A stretch of 64,000 nucleotides of DNA, taken from NCBI GenBank assembly GCA_964416765.1, contig CAYQEU010000001.1:407253-471252 (forward strand), in the 5' to 3' direction. The translations under genes and the position numbers were made by a program. Below are positions 2,092-63,920 of this stretch, piece by piece. Numbering within the stretch: position 1 is the first letter of the stretch; every line of letters starts with the position of its first letter. The stretch is from an uncultured Candidatus Saccharibacteria bacterium (GTDB lineage Bacteria > Patescibacteriota > Doudnabacteria > UBA920). The notes under the pieces were generated by a model. That model ran no database searches. It had not been told where the DNA came from and was given only the letters and a program-made list of their open reading frames with translations.

Positions 2092-3716
2092 TGTTTAAAC
2101 TCCGTATCCTCGACGATAACTTCTCCATCGGAAAAGCCACCATAATAATCTCCAGCCTCACGCTCTTGTCGCGCGTTGCCGGTTTTGTGCTCAAGCTTTT
2201 ACTTACCCGTGCTTTTGGCGCTGGCGATACCTTAGATATTTACTTAACCGCCTTCCGCATCCCGGACATTCTATATAATCTTCTGATTCTTGGGACCCTA
2301 AGCGCCGCGTTTATTCCCGTGTTCGGGGATTTCCTGCTCAAAGACAAAAGCGAAGCCTACCGAATCGCCAACGGTGTTCTGAACATTTGCCTTGTCGTCA
2401 TGACGTGCATTGCCCTGGTGTTATTCATTTTCCTGCATCCACTGACCCATCTCCTGGTTCCCGGATTTGCCCCAGATAAACTGAACGCCACCGTTTCACT
2501 AACCAGAATAATGTTAATCTCGCCCATTCTGTTCACGGTGTCGAATGTGTTTACCGGCATACTCTCAACTTACAAGCGCTTTTTTATAGTCAACCTCGCG
2601 CCAATTATTTATAACCTCGGAATTATTTTCGGCCTCTTGGTTCTTTACCCTCGTTATGGCCTCACGGGTCTGGGATTCGGCGTATTGATTGGCGCCGCCC
2701 TGCATGGGGCGATTCAAGTGCCCGAACTTTTACGCCATGGTTATTCCTGGCAGCCAGTCTTGCCCTGGAACCATCCAGCTGTAAAAAAGATTTTTAAATT
2801 AATCCTGCCCCGCGTATTTGGACTGGATACTTCTTTTGTTAGCCTAATCGTCGTTTCAGTGATAGGTTCATTCCTTGCCTCGGGATCCATTAGCATTTTT
2901 AACCTGGCTTCCGACTTGCTGGCTTTTCCGGTGGGGATTTTTGCCGTTTCCGTTGCCATAGCGGCTTTCCCTTTATTGACTGAACTCCATAACAAGGGAA
3001 AAGAAGGGGAATTTGTCGCTACTCTGCAAAGAAGCATGCAGCAGATATTATTTTTTGCCGTTCCTTTAACCGTAATTGTATTAATTTTCCGTGCCTATAT
3101 AGTTCGCCTGGCGTATGGCTATGGCCACTTTTCCTGGGAAGATACCACACTAACCTTTACATCCCTGGGTATTTTCAGCCTGGCGTTGTTCAGTCAAAGT
3201 TTAATCCCAATTTTGGCGCGATCATTCTACGCCCGGTACAACACCTGGGTACCTGTCCTAGTAAGCTTATTGAGCTTGGCGGTAAATACTGCGGTGTCAG
3301 CTTTCTTCGCTCCCAAATATGGCGTGACCGGCCTCGCCATGGGGTTTGTTTCCGCCAGCATCTTTAATTGCATAGTACTGCTGGGTTGGCTGCACCATCA
3401 ATTTGCCCAAGACCCCAGGATCCCGGAAGATACGCTGGATAATTTTGATGTGGGGATCATGACTACTATATTAAAATCTGCTTTGGCCAGCATCCCGCTT
3501 GGCCTCGCCAGTTACCTGGTCTTGAAACTGATTGGCCCAAGCTTAGACACCCACAGCATTCTTGGGCTATTTATCCAGTCGGGGTCGGCCGGTCTAGCTG
3601 GGCTGATTGCTTTTTGGCTATCAGCCCGAGCGCTGAAACTGCCCCAAATTGCGACTTTTGAGGGTTATGTAAGGGCAGGCTGGAAAAGATTTGCTCCAAA
3701 AGGTAAAATAGCCTAA
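2088..3716 (+). CDS. murJ: Lipid II flippase MurJ (MviN family)
   Basis: 542-aa polytopic membrane protein. The N-terminus (ATIIISSLTLLSRVAGFVLKLLLTRAFGAGDTLDIYLTAFRIPDILYNL) is typical of MurJ/MviN. ~14 TM segments. Confidence 0.85.
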   Translation: MMFKLRILDDNFSIGKATIIISSLTLLSRVAGFVLKLLLTRAFGAGDTLDIYLTAFRIPDILYNLLILGTLSAAFIPVFGDFLLKDKSEAYRIANGVLNICLVVMTCIALVLFIFLHPLTHLLVPGFAPDKLNATVSLTRIMLISPILFTVSNVFTGILSTYKRFFIVNLAPIIYNLGIIFGLLVLYPRYGLTGLGFGVLIGAALHGAIQVPELLRHGYSWQPVLPWNHPAVKKIFKLILPRVFGLDTSFVSLIVVSVIGSFLASGSISIFNLASDLLAFPVGIFAVSVAIAAFPLLTELHNKGKEGEFVATLQRSMQQILFFAVPLTVIVLIFRAYIVRLAYGYGHFSWEDTTLTFTSLGIFSLALFSQSLIPILARSFYARYNTWVPVLVSLLSLAVNTAVSAFFAPKYGVTGLAMGFVSASIFNCIVLLGWLHHQFAQDPRIPEDTLDNFDVGIMTTILKSALASIPLGLASYLVLKLIGPSLDTHSILGLFIQSGSAGLAGLIAFWLSARALKLPQIATFEGYVRAGWKRFAPKGKIA

Positions 3717-5512
3717 TGAATTCACAAGCCCATACCCGAAATTTCTGCATTATCGCCCATATCGACCACGGTAAAAGCACGCTGGCTGACCGTCTTTTGG
3801 AGATGACCAAGACCGTTACCCAGCGCGAAATGAAAGAACAACTCCTCGACCAAATGGATTTAGAGCGCGAACGAGGCATAACCATTAAACTCCAGCCGGT
3901 CCGTATGAATTATGAGTTCGAAGGGCAGGATTACACCCTTAACCTCATCGACACACCAGGCCACGTTGATTTCAGTTACGAAGTCTCACGGAGTTTGGCC
4001 GCCTGCGAAGGGGCTATTTTGGTTGTGGACAGTACGCAGGGCATTGAAGCGCAGACTTTGGCCAACGCGTACTTGGCTATAGAACACGACCTTACCCTTA
4101 TTCCTGTGGTTAACAAGATTGACCTACCTAATTCTGATCGGCAAAAAACCGCTGCCGAACTTATCAAAGTATTTGGGTTTAAGGAAGAAGAGATTATTTA
4201 CACATCCGGCAAAACCGGCGAAGGCGTGGAAGACCTGATAGTTGAAATTATCCGGCGCGTACCCAAACCAACTGGTGACCCGAGCAAGCCGACACGGGCC
4301 CTGATATTTGATTCTGTCTATGATATCCACCGCGGCGTGATTGCCTTTGTTCGCATGATGGACGGGCAAATTTCCAGCAATCAAAAGATTTTTATGATGG
4401 GTAGCCAAACTAACGCCGAAAGCCTGGAAGTGGGAAATTTCCGGCCGCGCATGGAAAAGTCTAAGGATCTTCCTACGGGATCTGTCGGTTATATCGTAAC
4501 TGGCCTACGTGAGGTAAGCAAAGCGCGGGTAGGAGACACGGTCACTCTTTTTGAAGAGCGGCAGAAAACCACTCCTCTTCCCGGTTACCAGGAAGTCAAA
4601 CCAATGGTGTACGCGGGGATATTCCCAATATCCGGTGATGACTATCCTTTACTGCGGGATGCCATGGAGAAATTAAAGTTAAACGACGCGGCATTAGTGT
4701 TTGACCCTGAAAACATCCCCAGTATTGGTTTTGGGTTTCGTTGTGGGTTTTTGGGACTGCTCCATATGGATATCGTGCAAGAGCGGCTGTCCCGGGAATA
4801 CGACCTTAACCTCATCCTCACTTCACCGAGCGTCGCATACAAAATCATCAAAACCAATGGAGACACTCTTACTATTACCAACCCGGCGCAAATGCCGGAC
4901 CCTACGGTAATCGACGAAATCCAGGAGCCTTGGATGAAAGTCGCCATTCTAACTCCATCCGATTTTATTGGCCCAATTATGGAAATAGTGACCCAGCGCC
5001 GCGGCATCAGCACCACCATAAACTACCTAGGCAGCGACCGGGTGGAAATGCTGTTTGAAATGCCCCTCGCTAATATTATCGTGGATTTTTATGACAAGCT
5101 TAAAAGCGTATCCAGCGGTTACGCCTCACTTAACTATGACTTTATAGAATTGCGCAAAGGCGATTTGGTAAAGATTGATATCTTAATCGGCGGCGAGAAA
5201 GTGGAGGCTTTGTCGGCAATCCAACATAGCGCCACAGCCGACACCACCGCGCGGGAACTTGTCGCCAAACTCAAGACCTTGATTCCCCGGCAGCAGTTCG
5301 AAATTGCCATTCAAGGAGCAATTGGCAGTAAGATCATTGCTCGGGAAACCATCTCAGCCTTGCGCAAAGACGTTACCGGATACCTGTATGGAGGGGACGT
5401 GACCCGTAAAATGAAACTTTTGAATAAACAGAAGGCGGGAAAGAAAAAAATGAAAAAAATCGGCAAAGTGGATATTCCACAAGAGGCTTTCTTGGCAGTA
5501 TTAAGAAAATAG
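3716..5512 (+). CDS. lepA: Elongation factor 4 (LepA)
   Basis: G1 motif NFCIIAHIDHGKSTLADRLL, DTPGHVDF and NKIDLP GTPase motifs, and the LepA C-terminal domain. 598 aa. Confidence 0.95.
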   Translation: MNSQAHTRNFCIIAHIDHGKSTLADRLLEMTKTVTQREMKEQLLDQMDLERERGITIKLQPVRMNYEFEGQDYTLNLIDTPGHVDFSYEVSRSLAACEGAILVVDSTQGIEAQTLANAYLAIEHDLTLIPVVNKIDLPNSDRQKTAAELIKVFGFKEEEIIYTSGKTGEGVEDLIVEIIRRVPKPTGDPSKPTRALIFDSVYDIHRGVIAFVRMMDGQISSNQKIFMMGSQTNAESLEVGNFRPRMEKSKDLPTGSVGYIVTGLREVSKARVGDTVTLFEERQKTTPLPGYQEVKPMVYAGIFPISGDDYPLLRDAMEKLKLNDAALVFDPENIPSIGFGFRCGFLGLLHMDIVQERLSREYDLNLILTSPSVAYKIIKTNGDTLTITNPAQMPDPTVIDEIQEPWMKVAILTPSDFIGPIMEIVTQRRGISTTINYLGSDRVEMLFEMPLANIIVDFYDKLKSVSSGYASLNYDFIELRKGDLVKIDILIGGEKVEALSAIQHSATADTTARELVAKLKTLIPRQQFEIAIQGAIGSKIIARETISALRKDVTGYLYGGDVTRKMKLLNKQKAGKKKMKKIGKVDIPQEAFLAVLRK

Positions 5513-5526
5513 CCAATAATATAGAT

Positions 5527-5913
5527 ATGGCACTCGGGCAAAGGTCAAAAACCAAACAAATACTCTTTTCAAAACCGGTCATCATAGCTTTGGTAATCAT
5601 GGTTATATTTGTTGGCACCTTGGAATTCCAGCAAATCCGCAAACGGCAGCAGTTCAACCGCGAAGTTGCAGCGCTCAAAAAACAGGAGGCGGACCTTATT
5701 CAAAAGAACCAAACCCTGCAAAACGGGTTGGCTTATTTCAATAACGACCAGTATAAGGATATGGTAGCCCGGCAACAGCTAAACCTGCGCAAAGACGGGG
5801 AAATAGTGGTTAATTTCCCGCCCGCCGTGGAACAACAGTCCCAAGCGCCCGCCCCAGCGCCAAAAACTTCGAACCCAACCAAATGGTGGAATTATTTTTT
5901 TAATAAACAGTAA
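5527..5913 (+). CDS. Small bitopic coiled-coil protein, FtsB/DivIC-like septum formation initiator candidate
   Basis: 128 aa with an N-terminal TM helix then coiled-coil heptads (EVAALKKQEADLIQKNQTLQN). Confidence 0.45.
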   Translation: MALGQRSKTKQILFSKPVIIALVIMVIFVGTLEFQQIRKRQQFNREVAALKKQEADLIQKNQTLQNGLAYFNNDQYKDMVARQQLNLRKDGEIVVNFPPAVEQQSQAPAPAPKTSNPTKWWNYFFNKQ

Positions 5914-5918
5914 TTAGC

Positions 5919-6860
5919 ATGAAAAAGCCTCTACACCAACACATTAGAGAAAGTATGACTAAGAAACGACTGCTTCTCGCCGGGGGAATTTTGTTGCTGG
6001 TCATCGCGGTTTTGGTGTCGGGAGGGTTTTGGCTCTATTCCGCTCCTTATTCCTCCGCAAAGATAAAGGCATTTAAAAAATTTGACCTTCCCATAGCCCG
6101 GGTAGGTTCTTACCTTATCGGGGGCCGTGAATTATTTGACCGCTATGATCTGGCCGAACAACTTTATAATGGTTCATCCGGATATGATTCAAGTCAGTCT
6201 CAAGCCCAGATTCTCGACCGTTTGATCGAAATTAAAAAAATGGAAATTATTGCCGGCCAGCGGGGCGTCAAAGTAACCGAAGCGGAACTGGATGCGGAGT
6301 ACGACCGGTTAGCGGGCCAGGCGGGCGGGAACGACGCTTTTGCCGCCACCCTTAAGGACAAGTACCATTTTACCGTTGAGCAGTTTAAGCAAAAAGCCCT
6401 AAAACCCGACGTTGTTAAAACCAACCTCCAGATTAATTTTTACGACGATAAATCTTTAAACCCTGAATTGTATGCCACGCTGGATAAGGTGAATGCCGCG
6501 TTAAGAAGCAATACAGACTTTGCGGAAGTGGCAAAGACTTATTCCGAGGATCCCGCCACCAGCCAGTTCGGCGGCGATAGCGGCATGATTCCGCTCAAAG
6601 ACCTTGCTCCGGAGTTCCAGAAAGAACTTTTGGGAAAACAGCCCAATGATGTCGTAACTGCTAACACAAGGTTCGGGGTATACGTGATCAAGGTAATTAA
6701 CCGTAAGGGCGACGACGGAAATGGGGGAGGCAGTATCCACTTCCAATCCATCTACCTGAACTACGGGAAATTTAGCGCAAAGGAAACCGAATCAGCATTT
6801 TCTAAATGGTATAAAAACCAAACAGCCGCGGTAAAAGTTCAAAAATTTATCAATTTATAA
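5919..6860 (+). CDS. Parvulin-type peptidyl-prolyl cis-trans isomerase (PrsA/SurA-like), membrane anchored
   Basis: N-terminal TM helix. C-terminal parvulin block FAEVAKTYSEDPATSQFGGDSGMIPLKDLAPEFQKELLGKQPNDVVTANTRFGVYVIKV. Confidence 0.7.
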   Translation: MKKPLHQHIRESMTKKRLLLAGGILLLVIAVLVSGGFWLYSAPYSSAKIKAFKKFDLPIARVGSYLIGGRELFDRYDLAEQLYNGSSGYDSSQSQAQILDRLIEIKKMEIIAGQRGVKVTEAELDAEYDRLAGQAGGNDAFAATLKDKYHFTVEQFKQKALKPDVVKTNLQINFYDDKSLNPELYATLDKVNAALRSNTDFAEVAKTYSEDPATSQFGGDSGMIPLKDLAPEFQKELLGKQPNDVVTANTRFGVYVIKVINRKGDDGNGGGSIHFQSIYLNYGKFSAKETESAFSKWYKNQTAAVKVQKFINL

Positions 6861-53504: not shown

Positions 53505-53614
53505 CCTCGTTCGACATTACCCGCCATATTTCCTTCATACCTAAATACTCACAAACCGAAAACAGCCAAGTCATACCCCTTTGACCTGGCTGTTTTTCAT
53601 TTATCACCCCGGTA

Positions 53615-53643
53615 AACAAAAATGCCCCCTTGCGGGGGCATTC
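53615..53643 (-). terminator. Rho-independent terminator of cspA (minus strand)
   Basis: 9-bp hairpin aatgccccc/gggggcatt with a T-run on the minus strand. Confidence 0.65.
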
Positions 53644-53649
53644 TAACGA

Positions 53650-53850
53650 TTATGCTCGTTTAACGTTTATCGCGTTTTTTCCTTTAGGAGAATCCTCAGT
53701 ATCGAAGGTGACTTTGTCGCCTGGCTTGAGTTCTTCTAATGTCAGATCAGCGAGAGAATTTCTGTGGAAGAAAAGATCCTTATCTTCGCCGTCTACGCTT
53801 ATAAAGCCGAAGCCTTTATCTTCTACAACTTTCTTGATCGTACCGTTCAT
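53650..53850 (-). CDS. cspA: Cold-shock protein (CspA family)
   Basis: MNGTIKKVVEDKGFGFISVDGEDKDLFFH has RNP1/RNP2 motifs. A long AT-rich 5' UTR (~180 nt) lies upstream on the minus strand. Confidence 0.9.
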   Translation of the reverse strand: MNGTIKKVVEDKGFGFISVDGEDKDLFFHRNSLADLTLEELKPGDKVTFDTEDSPKGKNAINVKRA

Positions 53851-54034
53851 AGTTGAAATATTAGTGAGTTAAAGCAATTAAATATGTTGGCGAAACTCGA
53901 CTAAATTTCAAATCATATAACTTTGCTTTTTAATAATACCAAATATTTATAAAAAAGTCAAGTATAGGTTGAATAGCCTCAATAGCTATTATACTCATTA
54001 AAAGCTATACTTACCCTATAAAGGAAAGGATAAT

Positions 54035-54220
54035 ATGGCTTTTGAATCAATTGTGTTTCCGTTTGATAAGGATTTTAAGGATTTCGAAAGGGCAGTAGGG
54101 GAGATTATAGCATTGCGGGCTGAAGTAGAAATGATTCGAAGCGTGCTTATGGAAAATGGCCAGAGGGATGTAATCAAAAAAGCGGAACGGAATATGTATA
54201 AGCGTTTGGGTAGCAAATAG
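54035..54220 (+). CDS. Small hypothetical protein (61 aa)
   Basis: SD AAGGAAAGGA upstream. A strong terminator lies immediately downstream. Confidence 0.5.
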   Translation: MAFESIVFPFDKDFKDFERAVGEIIALRAEVEMIRSVLMENGQRDVIKKAERNMYKRLGSK

Positions 54221-54251
54221 AAAAACCCGCCCTTGGAGGGCGGGTTTTTAA
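54221..54251. terminator. Rho-independent (bidirectional) terminator
   Basis: aaaaacccgccc-ttggag-ggcgggttttt. Confidence 0.7.
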
Positions 54252-54462
54252 TTTAGGCAGCAGTGGCACCATCTGCGGGCTTTTGTTCCGCAGGAGTGTT
54301 CGGCGTAGCCGGGGTGGGGTTAGTATTTTCTTCAGCCATAACGTTCCTTTCGCTGCAATACCTCTATCCACGGCAGGCAGTATTAAGTTGTAAGGGTCCC
54401 ATTGGATAATGAACCAGTACCTTAATTATGGCATACATATGGGCTAGTGTCAAAGGGGCCAC

Positions 54463-54478
54463 CGTCGCACAATGTATG
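54463..54478. repeat. Left copy of 16-bp direct repeat CGTCGCACAATGTATG flanking the AT-rich island
   Basis: Exact match to 57611-57626. Embedded in a local palindrome (catac...gtatg). Confidence 0.5.
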
Positions 54479-54499
54479 CAAGGTATCGTTGTGGAAAAA

Positions 54500-54727
54500 C
54501 TAAATTCTTTCTAAACCTCTCAGCTTTCTCAACTCATTTATCTTGTTGCGTCTATCTTTGATCTTCTTAAAATTACGAGTAGTAGGATCAATATTTGAAC
54601 GCAATAAATACTCTAAGTAGTTACAACTTTTACAAGTCCAAATCCAAAGCGGGGGATTATAGGCAATGTGATATTTTACCCAACCACCGTGGTTATTTAC
54701 GTGCTGGTTACAAATATAACACTCCAT
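54500..54727 (-). CDS. Small Zn-ribbon protein (CxxC...CxxC), hypothetical, last gene of island operon
   Basis: 75 aa. CYIC and CKSC pairs. Starts 8 nt after the NTase stop. Confidence 0.5.
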   Translation of the reverse strand: MECYICNQHVNNHGGWVKYHIAYNPPLWIWTCKSCNYLEYLLRSNIDPTTRNFKKIKDRRNKINELRKLRGLERI

Positions 54728-54735
54728 GTAGTAAT

Positions 54736-56076
54736 TTATTTATACTTAGGTAATATCCAGCTATCAAGAACAACATTTTGCCGTGCTCTAACGACACAAA
54801 CATTGTTCCTTATTCCATAGCATTCAACATAATGATTTCCATTAAACTTCGTGTTTTCGGGCTGGTGTAAAGTATGATGATCAGTTATTTCACCTCTTGG
54901 TTGCGGCGACCTGTTATCATTCTTAACTTTCCATTTGATGATATCTAGTTCGCTTTCAGTTTCAGCTGAAAAATCTATCTTTCTGTCTGTTTCTATAATC
55001 CCGGCTGCGTCTAAAATAGTATGGCCGAAACCGTTTCTCGCTAAAGCCCTTGCTATAATCTTGATTTTTTCATTTTTCTCGATTAAGACAGGTATCTTTT
55101 TATCAAAAAGGTATTCTTCAGATTCACTTTTTCTAGTGTAATAATTTCCATCAAGCAAATCATCTATATTAGATTCTTCGGACAAATCTTCTAGCTTAAT
55201 CAAAAAGTTGTCTGCTGCATTTAAAATCTTTTCTTTCTCAGCTTCCGTCATGTCTTCAATGTAAGCATCAATGTACTTCGTGCTATCAGCGCGATCCGTT
55301 ATTTGGGGAGAACTTATGTGTTTTGGAAGATCACAAAAGAAATGAAATATCGCTGAATATATATCCATTTGGACGTTTTGGAAAAAGTACTGAATTACTA
55401 TCTGTTCTATGTGAAAAGATTTAAACTTAAAATTTGAATCTTTAGTTTTTACTGCATGTTTCCAGCCCTTTATGAACTTAACAGTCTTTCTAAAATCGGA
55501 GTTTTGGTCGTTTATTGTACGAGACATTTCAATATAACCCCGGGGGTCAGTAGGAATCCATCCCATTTCTTTATGATCTTGAGATAGTTCTTGATATAAG
55601 TGCTTACGTCTGGATGGTCGCACCTTTAGAAGCTCAGGAACTAGGTACTTATCTAAACCGAATTCGTTAACTTCGTGTTTAATAGCAGGTACTATATCTA
55701 ATGAAAATAGAACATCGTCACCATCATTCTCAAAAAAAAGAATAGTTATTGAGTGCGTTTGATATTCAATTTTTACGTTATGAGAAGTGGGCGATTGGTA
55801 TTCTTCGTTTAGTCTGTTATATAGATCATTTAATACTTCCTGAGAAGTCGCAATACTAGACTGAGTGTCACCAATAATATATAAAACATCAAGATCGTGT
55901 AATGGTGTAATGGCTGTGAACCTCGGGTAAGATCCAATTTGTAAACAATTAGATTCACCCAATATTATTTTTAGTGAATCGTATAGATTAGAAATTAATA
56001 ACCTTTCTGCATCTTTAGGAGACAGATTGTTTCTAACATAATCCCTCAAAAGCTTACTAATGGTTTCTTGCGTCAT
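54736..56076 (-). CDS. Pol-beta-superfamily nucleotidyltransferase, CD-NTase/SMODS-like (candidate second-messenger synthase) with a ~200-aa C-terminal domain of unknown function
   Basis: hGS-x12-DLD (QIGSYPRFTAITPLHDLDVLYII) plus a third acidic strand LFSLDIVPA ~65 aa later, the [DE]h[DE]h...hDhVPA pattern of cGAS/DncV-like NTases. 446 aa. AT-rich codon usage. Confidence 0.65.
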   Translation of the reverse strand: MTQETISKLLRDYVRNNLSPKDAERLLISNLYDSLKIILGESNCLQIGSYPRFTAITPLHDLDVLYIIGDTQSSIATSQEVLNDLYNRLNEEYQSPTSHNVKIEYQTHSITILFFENDGDDVLFSLDIVPAIKHEVNEFGLDKYLVPELLKVRPSRRKHLYQELSQDHKEMGWIPTDPRGYIEMSRTINDQNSDFRKTVKFIKGWKHAVKTKDSNFKFKSFHIEQIVIQYFFQNVQMDIYSAIFHFFCDLPKHISSPQITDRADSTKYIDAYIEDMTEAEKEKILNAADNFLIKLEDLSEESNIDDLLDGNYYTRKSESEEYLFDKKIPVLIEKNEKIKIIARALARNGFGHTILDAAGIIETDRKIDFSAETESELDIIKWKVKNDNRSPQPRGEITDHHTLHQPENTKFNGNHYVECYGIRNNVCVVRARQNVVLDSWILPKYK

Positions 56077-56573
56077 ATGCTTGTTGTTATCATAGAAGTA
56101 ACAACATCGTTCAAAAGCCTTCCTCTAAAGTTTGTAACTGCTCCGTTTCTTTGGTTGTCAACGAGATTCATTTGATCTTCGGGCATTGGCCCCTCGGAAC
56201 GAGGAGCGTATACAACTAAAGCGCAAGAATCAGGTTTCTTTTGTATTATAGCTGAAACATCAGTTTTCCAATCAGGCCAATACACCAGATATAATGAACA
56301 TGATTCAGCCTTGCCGATATCACTTATAGAAGAAACTTCAACAATATTTCTTTCCTTAAAAAGATGGGAATCAATCAATAAATCCCTAAGACTGTTAAAA
56401 TGTGAATCTTTTGCGAAAATGGCAATCTTTCGTTTAGATAGACCATTCCCTAATCTGTACAAAGCGGGACTGACTCCATTCAACCAAAGATATATTGCCC
56501 AAATAATTCCTCCGAGCAAAAATAAAGAATCAATAGTTCCTACCACCGTTAAAATGTTTATTGCTATATTCAT
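56073..56573 (-). CDS. N-terminal transmembrane protein with a ~130-aa cytoplasmic alpha/beta domain (candidate effector/sensor)
   Basis: TM segment(s) IAINILTVVGTIDSLFLLGGIIWAIYLWL, then alternating beta-alpha pattern (KIAIFAKDSHFNSLRDLL..LYLVYW..ALVVYAP). Stop overlaps the NTase start (ATGA). Confidence 0.6.
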   Translation of the reverse strand: MNIAINILTVVGTIDSLFLLGGIIWAIYLWLNGVSPALYRLGNGLSKRKIAIFAKDSHFNSLRDLLIDSHLFKERNIVEVSSISDIGKAESCSLYLVYWPDWKTDVSAIIQKKPDSCALVVYAPRSEGPMPEDQMNLVDNQRNGAVTNFRGRLLNDVVTSMITTSI

Positions 56574-56618
56574 TTATAAAAATTAGATCTATTTAGGTGC
56601 CTTATATAACTGGCTTAA

Positions 56619-56918
56619 TCATACACCTTTTTCGCTTTCTGTATAAGTTCCACCCAAACTTTCTACAATCCTTTTCTTTAATGCAGGAATAGGGGAGACT
56701 AGCCATTGCTTAGGCTCTTCTTGGACACATAATCCAGCTGACAGCCCAAACTCATCAACAATATCCCTAAGGTCTCCGAGACGAATCAGAATCGGTTGTT
56801 TGCAACCACATGAGCAATAACCAACTTTATAACCCATTGATCCGGTTTCAGGATCAGCATCAAGAGGGTAGCCTTTAAGTGGCCAACCACCTTTAGGATT
56901 TTGTCTGACTAGGAGCAT
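56619..56918 (-). CDS. Hypothetical small Cys-containing protein (99 aa)
   Basis: GYCSCGCKQP. Overlaps the upstream ORF by 26 nt in another frame. Confidence 0.4.
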   Translation of the reverse strand: MLLVRQNPKGGWPLKGYPLDADPETGSMGYKVGYCSCGCKQPILIRLGDLRDIVDEFGLSAGLCVQEEPKQWLVSPIPALKKRIVESLGGTYTESEKGV

Positions 56919-57258
56919 AAGGTTTCTTCTTCTTGGTTTGTTCGTAATCTACCCGCCGTAAGAACTTCTTATGACTTTCTTCTAATTCCACAAATACAGG
57001 GTCGGGAGTGTAAATGGACCTAATATATTTCTTAGCCTCGCTAAAGGCAATCTGAGGTGTTTTACCAACTAGCTGAGGGGTATGAATAGACTCACGTCGC
57101 ATAAAGTTAGAATCTTGGTCATACTCATGAATTGATACTTGGTATTCCTTATGGCCGTCAGCTGATAAAATAGGCAAAGCTTTAAGGTAAAACCTCAAAT
57201 CGTAGTATTCAAAGAGATCTTCATAAAAATATACTTTTTTACGCTTTATTCGATTCAT
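56893..57258 (-). CDS. Hypothetical small basic protein (121 aa), first gene of island operon
   Basis: AT-rich, Lys-rich C-terminus. No motif. Confidence 0.4.
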   Translation of the reverse strand: MNRIKRKKVYFYEDLFEYYDLRFYLKALPILSADGHKEYQVSIHEYDQDSNFMRRESIHTPQLVGKTPQIAFSEAKKYIRSIYTPDPVFVELEESHKKFLRRVDYEQTKKKKPYAPSQTKS

Positions 57259-57610
57259 ACAGATATCTTATAACTAGGAGCTTAACCATACCAGCAATAA
57301 ACTAAAGAAAATTATAAAACCCAATAAAAATAAATATAAAATAATAACTTATAACGATATGTGATACACAGGTCGAGCTTACCAGCGGGGGAGGCCCCCG
57401 CTCTCTCCGGCTTTTTGGCGGCCGATCGAGCGCGGGCCTCACACCCGTTTCTGTCTTAAACCACATACTAACTCGTTAAAAGAACTTATAACGCTTAGAA
57501 ACGATCCTAGTGCAATACAACTATAACGGAGTAGTGGGGAACTAGTTGTTAAAAGACTACTCTGCTATACCTGAAACCCTGGGGAATAGGCATAAACGCA
57601 ATATATCATA

Positions 57611-57626
57611 CGTCGCACAATGTATG
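57611..57626. repeat. Right copy of 16-bp direct repeat CGTCGCACAATGTATG
   Basis: Exact match to 54463-54478. Confidence 0.5.
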
Positions 57627-57896
57627 TTATACGACATACTATATTGATCAATTAATGAATCCGGATTTAACAAATATATTTATTGATTACTAGATTGTGC
57701 ATGTAACCACATATTTATATAAATTTATAATCGCGCTCTCCTGCTTGATTAACAATGTTAGATAATTGTTAAGATAATGATTTAATACTCCCTTTTCACC
57801 CCCTCTCTATTTCATGCCTATATCTCTATCTATCGACGATCGTCACGAATAAAAATATCTTCCCTTTTATCATATTTAGCCATGAATTTTGATAGA

Positions 57897-57925
57897 AACA
57901 AAAACCCGGGTTTGCACCCGGGTCA
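57897..57925 (-). terminator. Rho-independent terminator of the minus-strand hydrolase/pilin locus
   Basis: Palindromic hairpin acccgggt-ttgc-acccgggt with a T-run on the minus strand. Confidence 0.6.
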
Positions 57926-57956
57926 AATTACAGCTTTTTCTAAACGTTTAACTTCG

Positions 57957-58541
57957 CTAATCTACGTCACCATTACCAGGAGCGTTGTTATTAGTATCAC
58001 TGTTCGTATCCCCGATTTTGGTACCCGCACATGTCGCGTTACCCACAATATAATCAATGGGGCAACGGAATATGCCAGCAGGCACCCCATTGATTGTGGG
58101 GTTTCCGGCTAATAAAGGTTTTCCGTTTGGTAGGACTCTGCCACCAAAAATCAAAAAGTTAGTTAAAGAAAATGCTGCCAGCACGAGAAAGAAACCAATG
58201 ACCGCGTTCACCAATAGTTTTTTTGCTGATGTAACAGCTTCGGCGTTTCCGGCCGCAACTACAAAAGAGTAGCCAGCAAAAACTATCATGAACACCGCGA
58301 TGATACCGGCCATATCTATCAAAAAGTTCGTCACTATAATAACCAGGTTAAACAGGTCGGTAAGTTGGCAGGGATTGTCTGAAAAACTGCCGCACGGGAC
58401 AAACCCCTGGCCTGCGTTAGGGTCAGCTGCCTGAACCAAGGTTGGCATAATTAGCATAGTTGTAGCCACAACCAAGAATAAGACGTAAAAAACCTTATTT
58501 AATATTTTCATGTCTGGGATCATTAATTTTATTTTATTCAT
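57957..58541 (-). CDS. T4SS-pilin-like (TrbC/VirB2-type topology) secreted two-TM hairpin protein
   Basis: Signal peptide ...LVQA/ADP, a Cys pair (PCGSF..NPCQ), two long hydrophobic helices split by a short polar loop, and a Gly/Asn-rich C-terminus. Confidence 0.6.
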   Translation of the reverse strand: MNKIKLMIPDMKILNKVFYVLFLVVATTMLIMPTLVQAADPNAGQGFVPCGSFSDNPCQLTDLFNLVIIVTNFLIDMAGIIAVFMIVFAGYSFVVAAGNAEAVTSAKKLLVNAVIGFFLVLAAFSLTNFLIFGGRVLPNGKPLLAGNPTINGVPAGIFRCPIDYIVGNATCAGTKIGDTNSDTNNNAPGNGDVD

Positions 58542-59636
58542 TTATCTGCCTATGTAATTAATATGAAGGTTAGGTCCCGTAGTCGTGGGGAATACTTTGT
58601 AGTCTTTAATGGCCGTGCATTTTGGATCCTTAGAGGCTTCGTTGGCAAAGTTAACTTTACCCAATGAAATGATTGCTTCACAAAGGGTGGGCCAGTTAGG
58701 GTTAGTTGAACCTGCCTCTTTGGAATAACTAGGAGAACGTCCCCCGTTTAGCGCCAAATCCACGCAATTTCCACCCCGTGGATCCCCTGTCTTATGGCAA
58801 CCGCTAATGTGGGTTCCACTAATGCTGGAAGTAAGTATCCAACTTATACCAGGGGTTTTAGCTTTTAATCCGGCCAGTTGATCAGCCAAATCCTTGCATA
58901 GCTTACTCGCGCCGGCAGCATGCGGTATGCTGGCGGGAGTATCTACAATACCTCCGGAACAATTCACAGCAGTACCGGGCTTTGATCCGGTGGAAACGGT
59001 ATCGTCATTAGCACCGTGGCTGACCGCGGTATCGCAGTCGTCCGTTTCCCCTAGCCCCAAATCTTTGCATCCGGGCAACTCGTAATTGCCCAACAACTGC
59101 GGTGGCTGGATGCTCCTGAAGGCCACTAAGGTAGGGTTGATTTGTCTGAGTAAGACGTAGGAAGACAGCATGATCAGGAAACCTGCCAATACAGAGACCA
59201 GTATCTCCTTGGCCTGTTCTTTGCCATGCTCTCCTCCCACCATGTACATATACCCTGCCAGGACCACAAAGAAGACGGAAGCTACCGCTCCAAAAGCTAG
59301 GGCAAAGCGGTAACCCTTGTTGACACAGGTAGCCAGGTCCCCTGCTGATTGGTTGTCGGTTACCTGGGCGTTCTCCTGGAAAGTACCAGTGTTGGTGACG
59401 GTGGCGTTGGAAGGGGTGGGGGCACAAAGCAGGGCCCTGATGGAGCTTTCTACTCCCCTGCCTACATAGGTGGCTCCCGGTGACTTGGTGGGCGCGTTGT
59501 TGGCTGGGGCGTTGTTGGTGGGGGGAACCGGGTTAGGAATAAGCTGGGCGTTGGCTGGGGCAGCGTAGGCAAAAACCATTTCCACAAAAGCAATGGAAAG
59601 GATTATCAATTTTAAAGTATTGGTTTTGGTTTTCAT
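58542..59636 (-). CDS. Paralog A: shared signal-peptide + two-TM pilin-like module fused to an unknown C-terminal domain (possible LAS/M15-like peptidase)
   Basis: N-terminal 190 aa nearly identical to paralogs B and C. The C-terminus has HKTGDPRGGNCVDLAL and LHINY, which could form a metal site. 364 aa. Confidence 0.6.
   Translation of the reverse strand: MKTKTNTLKLIILSIAFVEMVFAYAAPANAQLIPNPVPPTNNAPANNAPTKSPGATYVGRGVESSIRALLCAPTPSNATVTNTGTFQENAQVTDNQSAGDLATCVNKGYRFALAFGAVASVFFVVLAGYMYMVGGEHGKEQAKEILVSVLAGFLIMLSSYVLLRQINPTLVAFRSIQPPQLLGNYELPGCKDLGLGETDDCDTAVSHGANDDTVSTGSKPGTAVNCSGGIVDTPASIPHAAGASKLCKDLADQLAGLKAKTPGISWILTSSISGTHISGCHKTGDPRGGNCVDLALNGGRSPSYSKEAGSTNPNWPTLCEAIISLGKVNFANEASKDPKCTAIKDYKVFPTTTGPNLHINYIGR
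59097..59526. repeat. Repeat copy A (~430 bp) of the shared 5' pilin-like module
   Basis: Near-identical to 60861-61326 and 62121-62586, with 2 mismatches seen by eye. Confidence 0.8.
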
Positions 59637-59646
59637 ATATTTAAAA

Positions 59647-60189
59647 TTACTCTGTTGGGCAAAAGCTTAAGCCAACGTTATATGGATTAGGTCGATAGTC
59701 ATCAGGCGGGGATTTGTAAACATAAATCGGCAATTGGCAAAGGTCGGCTTTGGGTGCGCCAAATAACTCAACCAGAGCCTGCTCCGCCGCTTTCTTTGCT
59801 GAATCCACGTCATTTTGGTCAGTGATCCACAGTTCGAACTGGTCCCCATCCGGCTGATAATCTATCTTGTACTGGTCTGTTTGCGAGAGAAGCAACGGAG
59901 TAGAAGCCGATGGACTATAATCTTTAGGAAATACATTCCTGATTTTAATGGACCCGTTAACCGTTTTGTAATAAATCCATTCTTGGGTGATGTCCTTTTG
60001 CGGGCTATTGGGGTAGTTTAATTTCTTTGACAGGGCGTTTGTCTGGTCTGTCCTGGTACCCGGGTTGTTGGAATTGGTGACACCCTGCCTTTGACCGGAC
60101 AAAATAAAGACCACAATAATTACCAGGATAATTAACAATACCGCCCCAATGGCAACGTATATTTTATTTTCCTTAATTAAATTCCACAT
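59647..60189 (-). CDS. Hypothetical membrane-anchored protein
   Basis: N-terminal TM helix IYVAIGAVLLIILVIIVVFIL then a soluble domain. Start overlaps the upstream gene's end. Confidence 0.5.
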   Translation of the reverse strand: MWNLIKENKIYVAIGAVLLIILVIIVVFILSGQRQGVTNSNNPGTRTDQTNALSKKLNYPNSPQKDITQEWIYYKTVNGSIKIRNVFPKDYSPSASTPLLLSQTDQYKIDYQPDGDQFELWITDQNDVDSAKKAAEQALVELFGAPKADLCQLPIYVYKSPPDDYRPNPYNVGLSFCPTE

Positions 60190-61406
60190 TGTGTTTTATA
60201 CTCGTTATAAACACGGGACATTCTAACCACATAGTCTCGGGTTTGCTCCAAAGAGTTAGCTCCTACAATGCAAGCAGTTTGGGCGGCATCCTTGAACGGA
60301 CACAGCGCCACTATCATGCCCGGACATATGCTACTGGGTCCTATCCTCCCCTCTCCGGCATTGTAGCCAGCCGCAATTTTTACGTAATCAACTCCGCCCG
60401 CTTTTTGCGCGATGTACTTCATGTATTTGGCGGCGCAGGGAATTTCCGCGATCCCGTTGGTTTGCCACCCATTGTTAGTGCAGCCAAACCGCGCGGCGGT
60501 GTCATTGCTCATTTGCATTAGCCCCTTACAGCATCCAGTCCAGCTGACTAGGGTTTGGTTTAAGTTGCTCTCAATTGTAGCTATGGTCTTAATAAAATTT
60601 GGGTCAATTCCATTAGCTTGCCCGGCCGCTTTGAACGCGGCATCAAAAGTCTTGTTACTGCATAGGGTTTTAAGCTTTGGACTGTCCTTTCCCAAACTGC
60701 AAACTTTCCCGCTTTTCCCCGTCATTGTTCCGCCCTGAGGTGGAATTCCTGTACCGTCGCCATTACTGACCCCGGGGGTGCCATCGGCAAGGGCGCAATC
60801 GTCCCCCTGGCCCAGATGCACGTCGCTACAGCTGGGAAGGTCACTATACTTCCCCAACAGCTGCGGTGGCTGGATGCTCCTGAAGGCCACTAAGGTAGGG
60901 TTGATTTGTCTGAGTAAGACGTAGGAAGACAGCATGATCAGGAAACCTGCCAATACAGAGACCAGTATCTCCTTGGCCTGTTCTTTGCCATGCTCTCCTC
61001 CCACCATGTACATATACCCTGCCAGGACCACAAAGAAGACGGAAGCTACCGCTCCAAAAGCTAGGGCAAAGCGGTAACCCTTGTTGACACAGGTAGCCAG
61101 GTCCCCTGCTGATTGGTTGTCGGTTACCTGGGCGTTCTCCTGGAAAGTACCAGTGTTGGTGACGGTGGCGTTGGAAGGGGTGGGGGCACAAAGCAGGGCC
61201 CTGATGGAGCTTTCTACTCCCCTGCCTACATAGGTGGCTCCCGGTGGCTTTGTGGGCGCGTTGTTGGCTGGGGCGTTGTTGGTGGGGGGATCAGCTAAGG
61301 CAGGGGTAGTGAAGGCGAGGAATTGGAGAGGGATTAGCACCAAAATATAAACCAAAAACACTACTTTGCCGTATCGCGTTTTGTTTCTGGATCGAAAAAT
61401 ATTCAT
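60177..61406 (-). CDS. Paralog B: pilin-like module fused to a family-1 lytic transglycosylase (SLT) domain
   Basis: The C-terminus carries the SLT triad ES (TIATIESNLN), GLMQ (CKGLMQMS) and AYNAG (AAGYNAGEG). Shared N-terminal module. Confidence 0.7.
   Translation of the reverse strand: MNIFRSRNKTRYGKVVFLVYILVLIPLQFLAFTTPALADPPTNNAPANNAPTKPPGATYVGRGVESSIRALLCAPTPSNATVTNTGTFQENAQVTDNQSAGDLATCVNKGYRFALAFGAVASVFFVVLAGYMYMVGGEHGKEQAKEILVSVLAGFLIMLSSYVLLRQINPTLVAFRSIQPPQLLGKYSDLPSCSDVHLGQGDDCALADGTPGVSNGDGTGIPPQGGTMTGKSGKVCSLGKDSPKLKTLCSNKTFDAAFKAAGQANGIDPNFIKTIATIESNLNQTLVSWTGCCKGLMQMSNDTAARFGCTNNGWQTNGIAEIPCAAKYMKYIAQKAGGVDYVKIAAGYNAGEGRIGPSSICPGMIVALCPFKDAAQTACIVGANSLEQTRDYVVRMSRVYNEYKTQCGI
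60861..61326. repeat. Repeat copy B (466 bp)
   Basis: Identical by eye to 62121-62586. Confidence 0.85.
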
Positions 61407-61421
61407 ACAGTTATTGTAACA

Positions 61422-62645
61422 CTAACAACCCGAAGTTTTATATGATGTCCACACTGCCTTGGCCCACACGCCATAACCATCCCCTCCCGGGTGGATCCCA
61501 TTATATTTTTGTGGGAAGATATTTAAATTCTTGGAATAAGTATCGTAATAGCAACCGCTTTGCCCGCTCTTTATACCGGCTATTACAGTTTGGACAGTAG
61601 TGTTATTTACGTTCGGGGTATCAGTACGCGATCCTCCCTCAGATGTAGTAGAAGTAAATTTCGGAGGGCCAATCCAAATTATTTTACCCACACCTTTGCT
61701 CTGGAGTACTTGAATTAACTTCGCGGTATCAGTTTTTACCTGTTGTTGATTGTGTTGGCCATTTGCGTCATTCGTCCCCAACGAAATCACTACAATACTT
61801 GGTTTATTGCTAGCATAATAATCCAAAGATTGCGCGGCAAAAGAATTCGCCCATTGTGTAATGGTAGTACCTCCTCTGTTATCAGGATCCTCACCCATCC
61901 CCCTATTAACCAGAACGCCACCATCCGCCGCGATAAGAGTTTTAAATTGTGGCTTGAGGCCCACAGAAAGCGAATCTCCAATAATTAGAAACTTTATCCC
62001 CTGGGTTTGTCCTGGCCCCCCATTACTGCCCCCTCCTGTAGTGGTGTTCCCTTGTGCATCAACACAGTTCTCCCCGAGTCCCGCATCAGCACAGCTTGGG
62101 AGGCTGTATTTGCCGACTAGCTGCGGTGGCTGGATGCTCCTGAAGGCCACTAAGGTAGGGTTGATTTGTCTGAGTAAGACGTAGGAAGACAGCATGATCA
62201 GGAAACCTGCCAATACAGAGACCAGTATCTCCTTGGCCTGTTCTTTGCCATGCTCTCCTCCCACCATGTACATATACCCTGCCAGGACCACAAAGAAGAC
62301 GGAAGCTACCGCTCCAAAAGCTAGGGCAAAGCGGTAACCCTTGTTGACACAGGTAGCCAGGTCCCCTGCTGATTGGTTGTCGGTTACCTGGGCGTTCTCC
62401 TGGAAAGTACCAGTGTTGGTGACGGTGGCGTTGGAAGGGGTGGGGGCACAAAGCAGGGCCCTGATGGAGCTTTCTACTCCCCTGCCTACATAGGTGGCTC
62501 CCGGTGGCTTTGTGGGCGCGTTGTTGGCTGGGGCGTTGTTGGTGGGGGGATCAGCTAAGGCAGGGGTAGTGAAGGCGAGGAATTGCAGCGCTAAAACAGC
62601 GGCTGTAAACCCGATCCTAAAGTATTTTGGTTTTTGTTTCCACAT
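61422..62645 (-). CDS. Paralog C: pilin-like module fused to a GDSL/SGNH hydrolase domain
   Basis: SGNH blocks: GDS (LIIGDSLSVG), GxND (VVISLGTNDANG), DxxH region (NGIHPGGDG). Shared N-terminal module. Confidence 0.7.
   Translation of the reverse strand: MWKQKPKYFRIGFTAAVLALQFLAFTTPALADPPTNNAPANNAPTKPPGATYVGRGVESSIRALLCAPTPSNATVTNTGTFQENAQVTDNQSAGDLATCVNKGYRFALAFGAVASVFFVVLAGYMYMVGGEHGKEQAKEILVSVLAGFLIMLSSYVLLRQINPTLVAFRSIQPPQLVGKYSLPSCADAGLGENCVDAQGNTTTGGGSNGGPGQTQGIKFLIIGDSLSVGLKPQFKTLIAADGGVLVNRGMGEDPDNRGGTTITQWANSFAAQSLDYYASNKPSIVVISLGTNDANGQHNQQQVKTDTAKLIQVLQSKGVGKIIWIGPPKFTSTTSEGGSRTDTPNVNNTTVQTVIAGIKSGQSGCYYDTYSKNLNIFPQKYNGIHPGGDGYGVWAKAVWTSYKTSGC
62121..62586. repeat. Repeat copy C (466 bp)
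   Basis: Identical by eye to 60861-61326, 1260 bp apart. Confidence 0.85.
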
Positions 62646-63920
62646 TTATTTTCCGAGGAAATCTAAAGGATTGTAGGTGTAACCGCTGGGGACGGAATAT
62701 GAACCGTAAGTGCTTTGGTAAGCGCCCGGGGTAATAGTAAACCCGTTCGCGTCAAACACGGTGAAGTGCAAATGGAACCCATGGTCAGGACCATACAATA
62801 AGGCGGAAGTATTTCCCGTGTTTCCTTCGTAGCCAACAATGTCACCGCGTTTTACGGTTTGCCCGCTGCTGAGGATAAACTTTTTCATGTGACCGTACAA
62901 AGTGACAATATTGCGGTTGCCGCTTTTAGTCGAAATAGTATGTTTGATAGCGCACCAATTGCCGTACGCGGCGGCGCCAGTAGCGCATTTCACAACAACA
63001 CCATCAGCGGCGGCATAAATAGTAGTCCCTGCGGGACCGGCAAGATCTATTCCGTTATGGAAAGAATAGCCTAAAGAAGTAAAACCGGTGTTGCCGTAAC
63101 CCTGTGTCATGACACCGTTTAATGGCCACGCCAGTACTCCTTTGCTTGCCGCAATGGAATGGTTGCCGCTATTCCGGGCTTTATTATCAAGATTGTAAAT
63201 TTCCTGCTGGATATCAGCCTGTTCACTGCGGGTGCTGTTCAAAACTTGCTGATATTTGCTTTCCTGGCCCTGGGTCTGCTGTAATAACGACTCTTTGGCC
63301 AGACGTTGGTCGTTCAACGCATCCTGGTTTTGACTTAGCTCATCCTTAAGTTCAGAAAGGCGTTGCAACTGCGCTTTGAGGTCGGATTGCTGTTGCTCCA
63401 GTTTTTTCTTAACTTCTTTGATGCGGTTTACCAAATCAAGAACCTGCTTGTTTACGCTCTGAGTGTATTCAACCTGGTCCAAAAACGCGGAAAAATTATC
63501 GCTGCCCATGGTTAGGGTCAGGAAAGAATTGTTATCCAATTCGTTCAGCTGGACTACAAGTTCGGCCAGAATTTTCCGGTTGTCCGCGATTTCCGCTTCG
63601 CGGCGGTCAATTTCCGTTTGCAAATCCTGGATTTGCAGGGTGGTATCGTCGATGCGGGTATTATTAGCCTGGATTTCGAGCTCGGTTGACTGGATCTGGG
63701 AATCATAAATGCCGATCTCATTTTGAAGTGAGGCGCTCTGTCCCCTTAACCGGCCGATATTCTGGTTAAGGCCATTAATCTGATCATTCAGGTTTTTTAG
63801 CTTGTTCTGCAGGTCGGTGCGGGTGTCTGCTCCGGCAGGTGAAATAAATAAAAGGCTCAACCCTAATCCCAGGATTGCCGCCAATATTTTTGTTTTTGTT
63901 TCAGCAAACTTCGATTTCAT
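62646..63920 (-). CDS. Coiled-coil M23 family metallopeptidase (EnvC/NlpD-like peptidoglycan DD-endopeptidase)
   Basis: Signal peptide, ~230-aa coiled coil, M23 motifs HxxxD (FHNGIDLAG) and HxH (GFHLHFTVF). Confidence 0.85.
   Translation of the reverse strand: MKSKFAETKTKILAAILGLGLSLLFISPAGADTRTDLQNKLKNLNDQINGLNQNIGRLRGQSASLQNEIGIYDSQIQSTELEIQANNTRIDDTTLQIQDLQTEIDRREAEIADNRKILAELVVQLNELDNNSFLTLTMGSDNFSAFLDQVEYTQSVNKQVLDLVNRIKEVKKKLEQQQSDLKAQLQRLSELKDELSQNQDALNDQRLAKESLLQQTQGQESKYQQVLNSTRSEQADIQQEIYNLDNKARNSGNHSIAASKGVLAWPLNGVMTQGYGNTGFTSLGYSFHNGIDLAGPAGTTIYAAADGVVVKCATGAAAYGNWCAIKHTISTKSGNRNIVTLYGHMKKFILSSGQTVKRGDIVGYEGNTGNTSALLYGPDHGFHLHFTVFDANGFTITPGAYQSTYGSYSVPSGYTYNPLDFLGK

Follow-up and report, generated by a model that had tools for sequence, protein, structure and literature searches.

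Effectors with one predicted transmembrane (TM) segment are a named class of the antiphage signalling system based on cyclic oligonucleotides (CBASS), introduced by Millman et al. 2020 and cited in passages of 10.1101/2022.04.27.489752 and PMC12480259; the class, PADLOC family PDLC00664, is defined solely by the TM count and a hidden Markov model (HMM). A protein of similar build, Cam2 (CRISPR-associated membrane protein 2; Hoikkala, Graham & White 2024, PMC11229360), was defined in 26 type III CRISPR loci. According to the passages of that paper that deal with it, Cam2 combines a TM part with a receiver-like (REC-like) domain, has no kinase partner and was modelled as a trimer. The same passages predict that it binds and is activated by cyclic tri-adenylate (cA3), because NucC or SAVED-CHAT adjoin it, and call it a priority for study: a receiver domain had never before been linked to nucleotide sensing. 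They make no mention of CBASS. Here we describe a 166-residue protein encoded next to a nucleotidyltransferase of the cGAS/DncV-like type (CD-NTase) in a 64,000-nucleotide stretch (the window) of contig CAYQEU010000001.1 from an uncultured Candidatus Saccharibacteria bacterium. It is very probably a CBASS effector with a TM anchor and a cytoplasmic receiver-like sensor, and its relatives suggest that the CBASS 1TM effectors and the CRISPR protein Cam2 are apparently one family. The features of the gene pair are as follows, all on the minus strand.

56073..56573, minus: effector gene, 166 residues, ATG start (ORF list, full-length PADLOC matches, 918 homologs)
54736..56076, minus: CD-NTase cyclase, 446 residues, with a SMODS core and a C-terminal AGS-C Ig-like domain (residues 327-436, 54769-55098) (PADLOC, Pfam, NCBIfam)
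56073..56076, minus: ATGA stop/start overlap of 4 nt between the effector TGA and the cyclase ATG (read from the sequence)
56481..56564, minus: single predicted TM helix, residues ~4-31, N-terminus out and C-terminus in (hydropathy, AlphaFold, column statistics of 305 sequences)
56427..56477, minus: conserved juxtamembrane segment G33-x-x-P36-x-L-x-R40-L-G42-x-G44-L-x-x-R48-K49, joining the TM helix to β1 (conservation in 305 sequences)
56085..56426, minus: predicted cytoplasmic (β/α)5 CheY/receiver-like domain, residues 50-163, putative cyclic-oligonucleotide sensor
56106..56132, minus: signature motif N148-F-R150-G-R152-L-L-N-D156 at the β5-α5 junction, candidate phosphate-binding site (most conserved stretch of the family)

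The effector open reading frame (ORF) is a genuine gene and not a chance ORF, given 918 homologous proteins at E≤1e-3, nearly all of 160-180 residues, and 287 effector-family clusters at 50% identity in a profile search of a library of 1.84 billion proteins (221 at E≤1e-10, 99 at E≤1e-30). The best relative (P0001) is identical in sequence (100% identity, E 1.5e-104), and the next-best are 55-62% identical, with E down to ~1e-63. The protein matches the PADLOC family 'Effector 1TM' (PDLC00664) end to end, residues 6-165 aligning with profile positions 11-170 of 174 (E 2.4e-58, 195 bits). It also matches, over its full length, PADLOC PDLC01057 (C3a59), a trans-membrane, type III CRISPR-associated/cas accessory family (E 1.3e-46), and, weakly and partially, 'Mem_04', which PADLOC describes as a type III operon membrane protein, possibly a 'CARF domain diverged beyond recognition'. 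Neither Pfam nor NCBIfam matched the effector, even at E≤1, so that its identification rests on PADLOC and on the predicted structure; a profile search of the PDB sequences returned nothing at E≤10, and thus no solved relative. We assign the protein to the catalogued CBASS 1TM family, homologous to the type III CRISPR Cam2-type proteins, and not to a new kind of system. It shares with the 1TM class the full-length HMM match, the single predicted TM segment and the CD-NTase neighbour, and no structural difference separates the two. The original prediction, made from the letters of the window, had given the ORF the same coordinates and length, as the ORF list confirms, and had proposed a TM-anchored effector or sensor partner of the nucleotidyltransferase, which the end-to-end PADLOC match supports.

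The neighbouring gene, already taken for a nucleotidyltransferase in that prediction, is indeed recognised as such by PADLOC Cyclase PDLC00785 (E 4e-174) and Pfam AGS_C (E 4.8e-14). The match to Pfam SMODS (E 2.1e-05, 25.2 bits) falls slightly below the 26.5-bit cut-off, and that to NCBIfam CBASS_cyclase_b (E 4.5e-30) is also sub-threshold. The catalytic motifs are intact (G48-S49, D61-L-D63, and D127 in SLDIVP), and the two genes overlap on the minus strand (...AGCATATGACGCAAG...). Since a CD-NTase with intact motifs adjoins an effector in the same operon, and since the flanking ORFs of 75, 99 and 121 residues carry no PADLOC, Pfam or NCBIfam defence match that would represent ancillary Cap2/Cap3 (E1/E2/JAB) or HORMA/TRIP13 proteins, we classify the pair, by sequence, as a minimal CBASS of two genes (type I), in which the cyclase is fused to AGS-C. 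This architecture accounts for ~40% of type I operons (10.1101/2023.05.21.541620). PADLOC matched 68 families among the 55 other ORFs of the window; the 25 of these 68 that are listed are housekeeping-type look-alikes, such as a DndA/SspA-like desulfurase and a UvrD-like helicase, with no cas family among them, and the window contains no CRISPR array.

Three small ORFs lie close to the pair. One of 75 residues with a CxxC...CxxC zinc-ribbon pattern (54500-54727, minus strand) begins 8 nt past the cyclase stop and lies upstream of a terminator-like hairpin at 54221-54249. The other two, of 99 and 121 residues, overlap each other (56619-56918 and 56893-57258, minus strand) and lie just upstream of the effector gene in the same orientation. 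None of the three has a counterpart in the other 80 family loci of the survey described below, nor a PADLOC, Pfam or NCBIfam match, and for these reasons they were left out as members of the system.

The N-terminal region contains a single hydrophobic segment. All 19-residue Kyte-Doolittle windows from residue 1 to ~37 score above 1.1, and most above 1.6, delimiting one hydrophobic stretch at residues ~3-32. In the AlphaFold model, which was built from a 40-sequence alignment (A1) and has a mean predicted local distance difference test score (pLDDT) of 89 and a predicted template-modelling score (pTM) of 0.74, residues 2-47 form one uninterrupted helix, with a pLDDT of 88-95 over residues 1-30. 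A two-TM arrangement and a re-entrant hairpin were both rejected on account of this unbroken helix. Of the 'one or two N-terminal hydrophobic helices' proposed originally, the hydrophobic N-terminus is retained and the second helix is not. Conservation within the TM helix, calculated like all column statistics given here over 305 family members, reaches 82% at G12, 64% at T16, 51% at G22, 72% at W30 and 65% at R/K32, with a modest periodicity signal at 100 degrees. G12/T16 and G22/A26 form small-xxx-small pairs, and W30 sits at the inner membrane boundary, followed in most relatives by a basic residue at position 32.

The basic residues R40, K47, R48 and K49 imply, by the positive-inside rule, that the soluble domain is located in the cytoplasm. 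The juxtamembrane segment that leads to it is among the best conserved parts of the protein, with G33, R40 and G42 at ≥95%, L41 at 90%, and P36, G44, L45, R48 and K49 at 86-90%; the pLDDT of the model falls to 83-85 in this segment.

The soluble domain is modelled as five β-α units, with strands at residues 50-53, 77-80, 94-98, 118-122 and 144-147 and helices at residues 56-68, 83-91, 106-112, 132-139 and 150-163, corresponding to a CheY-like (β/α)5 fold. This model confirms the alternation of strands and helices that had been read from the sequence, and the strings quoted at that time, KIAIFAK, LYLVYW and ALVVYAP, map to β1, β3 and β4, respectively. The fold had then been described as Rossmann-like or TIR/SLOG/STING-like and nucleotide-binding; the three-layer α/β architecture of a nucleotide-binding type is borne out by the model, whereas neither TIR, STING, SLOG nor the Cap15 β-barrel is the best structural match, which is found among REC domains. 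A Foldseek search of the PDB, run to check TIR, STING and SLOG, gave weak matches, the best with an E of 4.9e-4.

The most invariant positions of the family (G33, R40, L41, G42, I50, L66, F72, N76, Y122, N148, G151, R152, L153, N155 and D156) group in two blocks, the juxtamembrane linker and the β5-α5 signature. In the latter, N148, G151, R152, L153 and D156 are conserved at 96-98% and N155 at 91%. Both the NFRGRLLND and the RLGxGL motifs are kept in members from type I CBASS, type III CBASS and CRISPR-associated loci. By analogy with the REC fold, the loops following β1, β3, β4 and β5 would share one face of the domain, which is the classical ligand site of that fold.

We compared the genomic contexts of 81 loci, consisting of the best 80 of 130 relatives in GTDB species representatives and the window contig (L001). 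The neighbours were classified with an iterated cyclase HMM, PADLOC and Pfam scans, and phmmer, which gave the following arrangements.

48 of 81 loci: cyclase immediately downstream on the same strand (20 of the AGS-C type of ~440 residues, 13 of 320-375 residues, 14 of ~255 residues, 1 truncated)
8 of 81 loci: cyclase-HORMA-TRIP13-effector (type III CBASS)
7 of 81 loci: other cyclase arrangements
7 of 81 loci: inside or beside type III CRISPR-Cas modules (L020, L036, L041, L061, L062, L065, L073)
11 of 81 loci: no recognisable partner, 4 of them on truncated contigs

Because the cyclase lies immediately downstream in 48 of the 81 loci, the effector-first order is the rule for this effector family, which contradicts the original prediction that a position upstream of the synthase is atypical. 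The hosts are mainly Patescibacteria, and also include Acidobacteriota, Pseudomonadota, Chloroflexota, Cyanobacteriota, Bacteroidota and Omnitrophota.

Two loci with cyclases show additional features. A contig from IMG/VR (L086) carries an effector of the family followed by a SMODS+AGS-C cyclase, and on this contig a LexA-like repressor (5346-6008; LexA_DNA_bind and Peptidase_S24) overlaps the start of the effector (6001-6489), which hints at a DNA-damage-responsive transcriptional control of this type of CBASS. In a Verrucomicrobiia locus (L014), two cyclase-like ORFs flank the effector, one of 294 residues upstream and one of 447 residues and AGS-C type downstream, and a weak TRIP13-like match is found at 3128-4072; this locus may be a composite or hybrid CBASS.

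The CRISPR-adjacent members, one of which comes from a Methanosarcinales archaeon, have as neighbours Cmr3-Cmr4-Cmr5-Cmr6, III-D Cas7-like proteins, Cas10 and a CARF7 protein. Homologs of the window effector also occur in type III-B loci on two complete RefSeq plasmids of Gloeothece verrucosa PCC 7822; they are WP_013334946.1 (52% identical) and WP_013334741.1 (40%), both annotated as 'hypothetical protein' and both placed between cas10-cmr3-cmr4-cmr6 and cas1-cas2. On one of these plasmids (NC_014534.1; L087), cas10 and the Cam2-like gene are separated by a gene for a TIR-domain protein, WP_013334947.1 (7080-7922); the twin, near-duplicate type III-B locus on NC_014533.1 lacks this TIR-domain gene. 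We looked for NucC or SAVED-CHAT near the CRISPR-associated homologs and found none; one neighbour is a PD-T4-6-like kinase. The original prediction had counted conservation outside nucleotidyltransferase contexts as an argument against an effector role. Members of the family are indeed present in type III CRISPR loci and, in fewer cases, stand as orphans, but this does not refute the role: type III CRISPR is another cyclic-nucleotide signalling context, and the occurrence there strengthens the reading of the protein as a sensor.

The resemblance to Cam2 is both architectural and genomic. Like Cam2, the window effector has an N-terminal TM helix, a C-terminal REC-like domain and no kinase partner, and it has homologs (40-56% identity) inside type III-B and III-D CRISPR loci; in the published passages, Cam2 is likewise predicted to be a cA3 sensor and membrane disruptor. 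The difference is that the window copy belongs to a CBASS operon with a CD-NTase neighbour, and not to a type III CRISPR locus. This comparison was made by architecture and through the PADLOC proxy C3a59 (E 1.3e-46).

In some relatives, the TM helix is replaced by another N-terminal module. P0245, found in two independent metagenome samples (L082, 327-1229; L083, 241-1143), carries a TIR_2 domain (E 1.4e-11) in its place, joined to the receiver-like domain; P0241 (L084, 212-1042) has a weak nucleoside-deoxyribosyltransferase-like (NDT-like) N-terminus, and P0207 a reverse-transcriptase fragment, the last being a possible fusion artefact. The contigs of all three are too short to show a neighbourhood; those of the TIR fusion and of the NDT-like protein measure 1-1.9 kb with non-coding flanks, and a metagenome scan gave the same contig only. 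As a TIR_2 domain takes the place of the TM helix in P0245, this fusion supports an architecture in which the receiver-like domain would be the sensor and the N-terminal module the output.

The mechanism that we favour, and consider reasonably likely as a whole, is that the effector of this minimal two-gene CBASS receives a cA3-type signal on its receiver-like domain, upon which the TM helices disrupt the membrane. Upon phage infection, the SMODS+AGS-C cyclase would make a cyclic oligoadenylate, most likely 3'3'3'-cyclic tri-AMP (cA3). The nucleotide would bind the receiver-like domain, the likely site being the face formed by the C-terminal loops of β1, β3, β4 and β5, including N-F-R-G-R, possibly at an oligomer interface. 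The conserved G-x-x-P...R-L-G-x-G-L linker would then relay the change to the TM helices, which might re-pack or cluster, so that the inner membrane would be breached or depolarised and the cell would die or arrest before phage release (abortive infection). Membrane disruption is a probable output; the proposed step from ligand binding to membrane damage is modelled on Cap15, Cam1 and Csx23, which passages of PMC11229360 summarise.

These proteins, together with Cap14, share a design logic with the window effector: a small nucleotide sensor in the cytoplasm is attached to N-terminal TM helices, and the membrane is disrupted or depolarised once the ligand binds. Cap15 has two TM helices and a β-barrel, Cam1 a TM helix and a CARF domain responding to cA4, Csx23 a TM helix and a tetrameric cA4-binding domain, and Cap14 a TM helix and a SAVED domain. 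The window effector differs from them by its receiver-like sensor, which is neither a β-barrel, a CARF, a SAVED nor a Csx23 fold, by its single TM helix, and by having no sequence relative in the PDB.

Three independent lines of context point to a cyclic oligoadenylate, most probably cA3, as the ligand. First, the cyclases of the type III CBASS loci align over their full length with CdnC of E. coli MS115-1 (EcCdnC) at 45-67% identity: 66% in L047, 67% in L067, 63% in L057, and 45-48% in L064, L070, L071 and L080. The measured product of CdnC is cAAA (10.1101/694695). In these CdnC-HORMA-TRIP13 loci, our effector family fills the slot downstream that is otherwise occupied by NucC, and since NucC is activated by cA3, this exchange is suggestive of the same signal. 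NucC is also shared by CBASS with type III CRISPR; nevertheless, it is a soluble, hexameric, restriction-endonuclease-like DNase that targets DNA, with no relation in sequence or fold to the membrane-anchored window effector. The second line is the presence of the family in Cmr and Csm-like loci. Cas10 produces only oligoadenylates (or SAM-AMP, the adduct of S-adenosylmethionine and AMP). Third, the effectors of the different contexts interleave. The effector of L057, a CdnC/TRIP13 locus, is 77.5% identical to that of the type I locus L068, where the AGS-C cyclase shares 45% identity with the window cyclase, and the effector of the Cmr-adjacent locus L020 is 63-66% identical to the nearest relatives of the window effector. 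Type I CBASS, CdnC-HORMA-TRIP13 (type III) CBASS and type III CRISPR-Cas loci use close relatives of the window effector interchangeably. We give cA3 itself somewhat better than an even chance of being the ligand. It is about equally balanced whether the receiver-like domain forms a receptor class of its own for cyclic tri-adenylate, with no relation to CARF, SAVED, STING, the NucC pocket or the Cap15 barrel.

Several points weigh against this mechanism and this ligand. The window cyclase is only ~27% identical to EcCdnC over ~200 residues and its nearest PDB sequences have an E of ~1e-6; because of this distance, the assignment of cA3 rests on the similarity of the effectors and on their shared motifs. 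Among the partner cyclases there are at least three size classes and clades, so that more than one ligand is possible. The TM sequence is poorly conserved, which would suit a generic membrane-disrupting anchor and is weak evidence for a specific pore. The conserved residues are placed on an 'active-site face' from the topology of REC domains, not from measured distances. About 6-7 loci are true orphans, with neither a cyclase nor a cas gene within 2.5 kb. Finally, the literature searched reports no ligand, structure or phenotype for the CBASS 1TM class, and gave no binding, toxicity or defence data for any member of the effector family.

In two of the orphan loci, from Ktedonobacteria/Thermogemmatispora (L032, 4092-4664; L078, 6746-7372), the gene that directly follows the effector homolog matches DUF1648 just below threshold (25-27 bits, cut-off 28.7 bits), and neither a cyclase nor a cas gene lies within 2.5 kb. 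The effector of these loci may function in trans, its partner being either a distant type III CRISPR system or a signal generator that went unrecognised.

The alternative that survives best retains the same architecture and role with another ligand, which could be a cyclic dinucleotide (cGAMP, c-di-AMP), cAAG, or cA4/cA6, the branches of the family being tuned differently. The remoteness of the window cyclase from CdnC and the partner classes of ~255, 320-375 and 440 residues speak for it, as does the range of Cas10 enzymes, which extends from cA3 to cA6, with cA4 as the commonest CRISPR signal according to passages of PMC11229360. Nevertheless, the putative binding motifs are invariant in all contexts, identity of up to 77.5% links effectors that accompany AGS-C cyclases to one that accompanies a CdnC-type cyclase, and the CRISPR loci offer only oligoadenylates (or SAM-AMP), which excludes G- and U-containing dinucleotides there. 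We consider this alternative unlikely.

Much less probable is that the α/β domain is itself catalytic, as a TIR-like or nucleoside-2-deoxyribosyltransferase-like NADase or nucleosidase, with the TM helix serving only as a tether. TIR and NDT/glycosidase folds are also flavodoxin-like, and the weak Foldseek matches include the SARM1 TIR domain (E ~0.025-0.04) and the CMP N-glycosidases MilB and BcmB (E 0.013-0.045). Nonetheless, no Pfam TIR or NDT family matches the effector at E≤1, and the invariant Glu needed for TIR or NDT chemistry is missing, the invariant residues being Arg, Asn, Gly and Asp. The fusion of the receiver-like domain to a bona fide TIR domain in P0245 would also be redundant if the receiver-like domain were an enzyme.

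We find it very improbable that the protein, tethered to the membrane, only regulates or buffers the signal, the real effector being encoded elsewhere, for instance by the 75-residue zinc-ribbon ORF downstream. The position of this ORF directly behind the cyclase, the two co-oriented small ORFs upstream, and the existence of orphan family members would be compatible with such a role. However, the lack of counterparts and family matches for the three small ORFs argues against it, as does the conserved unit, which is strictly the effector and the cyclase; in addition, a protein of the effector family holds the sole effector slot in the CdnC-HORMA-TRIP13 operons.

The idea of a genuine two-component receiver, phosphorylated by a histidine kinase and free of nucleotide control, is hardly credible even if REC domains are the best structural matches, as the acidic pair after β1 is replaced by F-A-K-x-x-N, the Thr/Ser after β4 by Y-A-P and the Lys after β5 by N-F-R (in N-F-R-G-R), D101 after β3 is invariant in close relatives only and is Ser, Pro or Cys in the wider family (alignments of 79 and 305 sequences), where many members have W-K-S-F, W-M-S-F or similar, no Pfam Response_reg match is obtained, and the neighbourhoods examined contain cyclases, HORMA/TRIP13 and Cas proteins and no kinase partner, the one PD-T4-6-like kinase neighbour aside. 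Compared with CheY-like REC domains, including pseudo-receivers such as the CikA PsR domain (2j48), the window domain shows ~10% identity and has its own N-F-R-G-R-L-L-N-D signature, while neither the Asp that accepts the phosphate nor the acidic pair nor the switch residues Thr and Lys are conserved. Its residues thus indicate that the soluble domain is no functional phospho-receiver.

The preferred reading, a membrane-anchored nucleotide sensor paired with its cyclase, concerns two genes located in a region of distinct composition, described by the following features.

53600..58000, strand not applicable: low-GC island of ~4.4 kb, 35-38% GC compared to a window mean of 47.7%, containing the CBASS pair and several small orphan ORFs (composition profile)
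54221..54249, minus: strong intrinsic-terminator-like hairpin with a 13-bp stem, 7 GC pairs and a T-run (consensus match only)

The island, which also holds a cold-shock-domain gene (53650-53850), was probably acquired horizontally; no integrase, tRNA or flanking repeat was seen. The hairpin is likely to be the end of the transcription unit. Promoter-like matches are not above expectation (14 compared to 12.2 expected from shuffling), no tRNA is found between 50 and 64 kb of the window, and no Rfam family within 53.0-58.2 kb, which covers the island.

Beyond the island, three tandem paralogs (58542-59636, 60177-61406 and 61422-62645, minus strand) share a near-identical N-terminal T4SS-pilin-like/TM module (T4SS, type IV secretion system), and contain 300-nt DNA repeats (59080-59379, 60844-61143 and 62104-62403) that are 98% identical. 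Their C-termini differ, being an SLT transglycosylase, a GDSL/SGNH hydrolase and an unknown Cys-rich domain. The three genes are flanked by a fourth T4SS_pilin gene (57957-58541) and by an M23 peptidase (62646-63920), and the cluster resembles a cassette of cell-wall hydrolases that have exchanged heads and are displayed on the surface or on pili.

The window effector is an ordinary member of a catalogued class, and its value is to provide a well-defined handle on a biochemically untested family. The evidence gathered across contexts, namely the CdnC-type cAAA-synthase partners, the Cmr/Cas10 neighbours, the invariant N-F-R-G-R and R-L-G-x-G-L motifs and the TIR fusion, leads to a specific and testable cA3 hypothesis with named residues. 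The survey indicates that the genome-reduced Patescibacteria commonly hold a minimal two-gene abortive-infection module. If the cA3 hypothesis is true, the AGS-C-fused and the minimal (~255-residue) cyclases, which are dominant in Patescibacteria, would be cA3 synthases.

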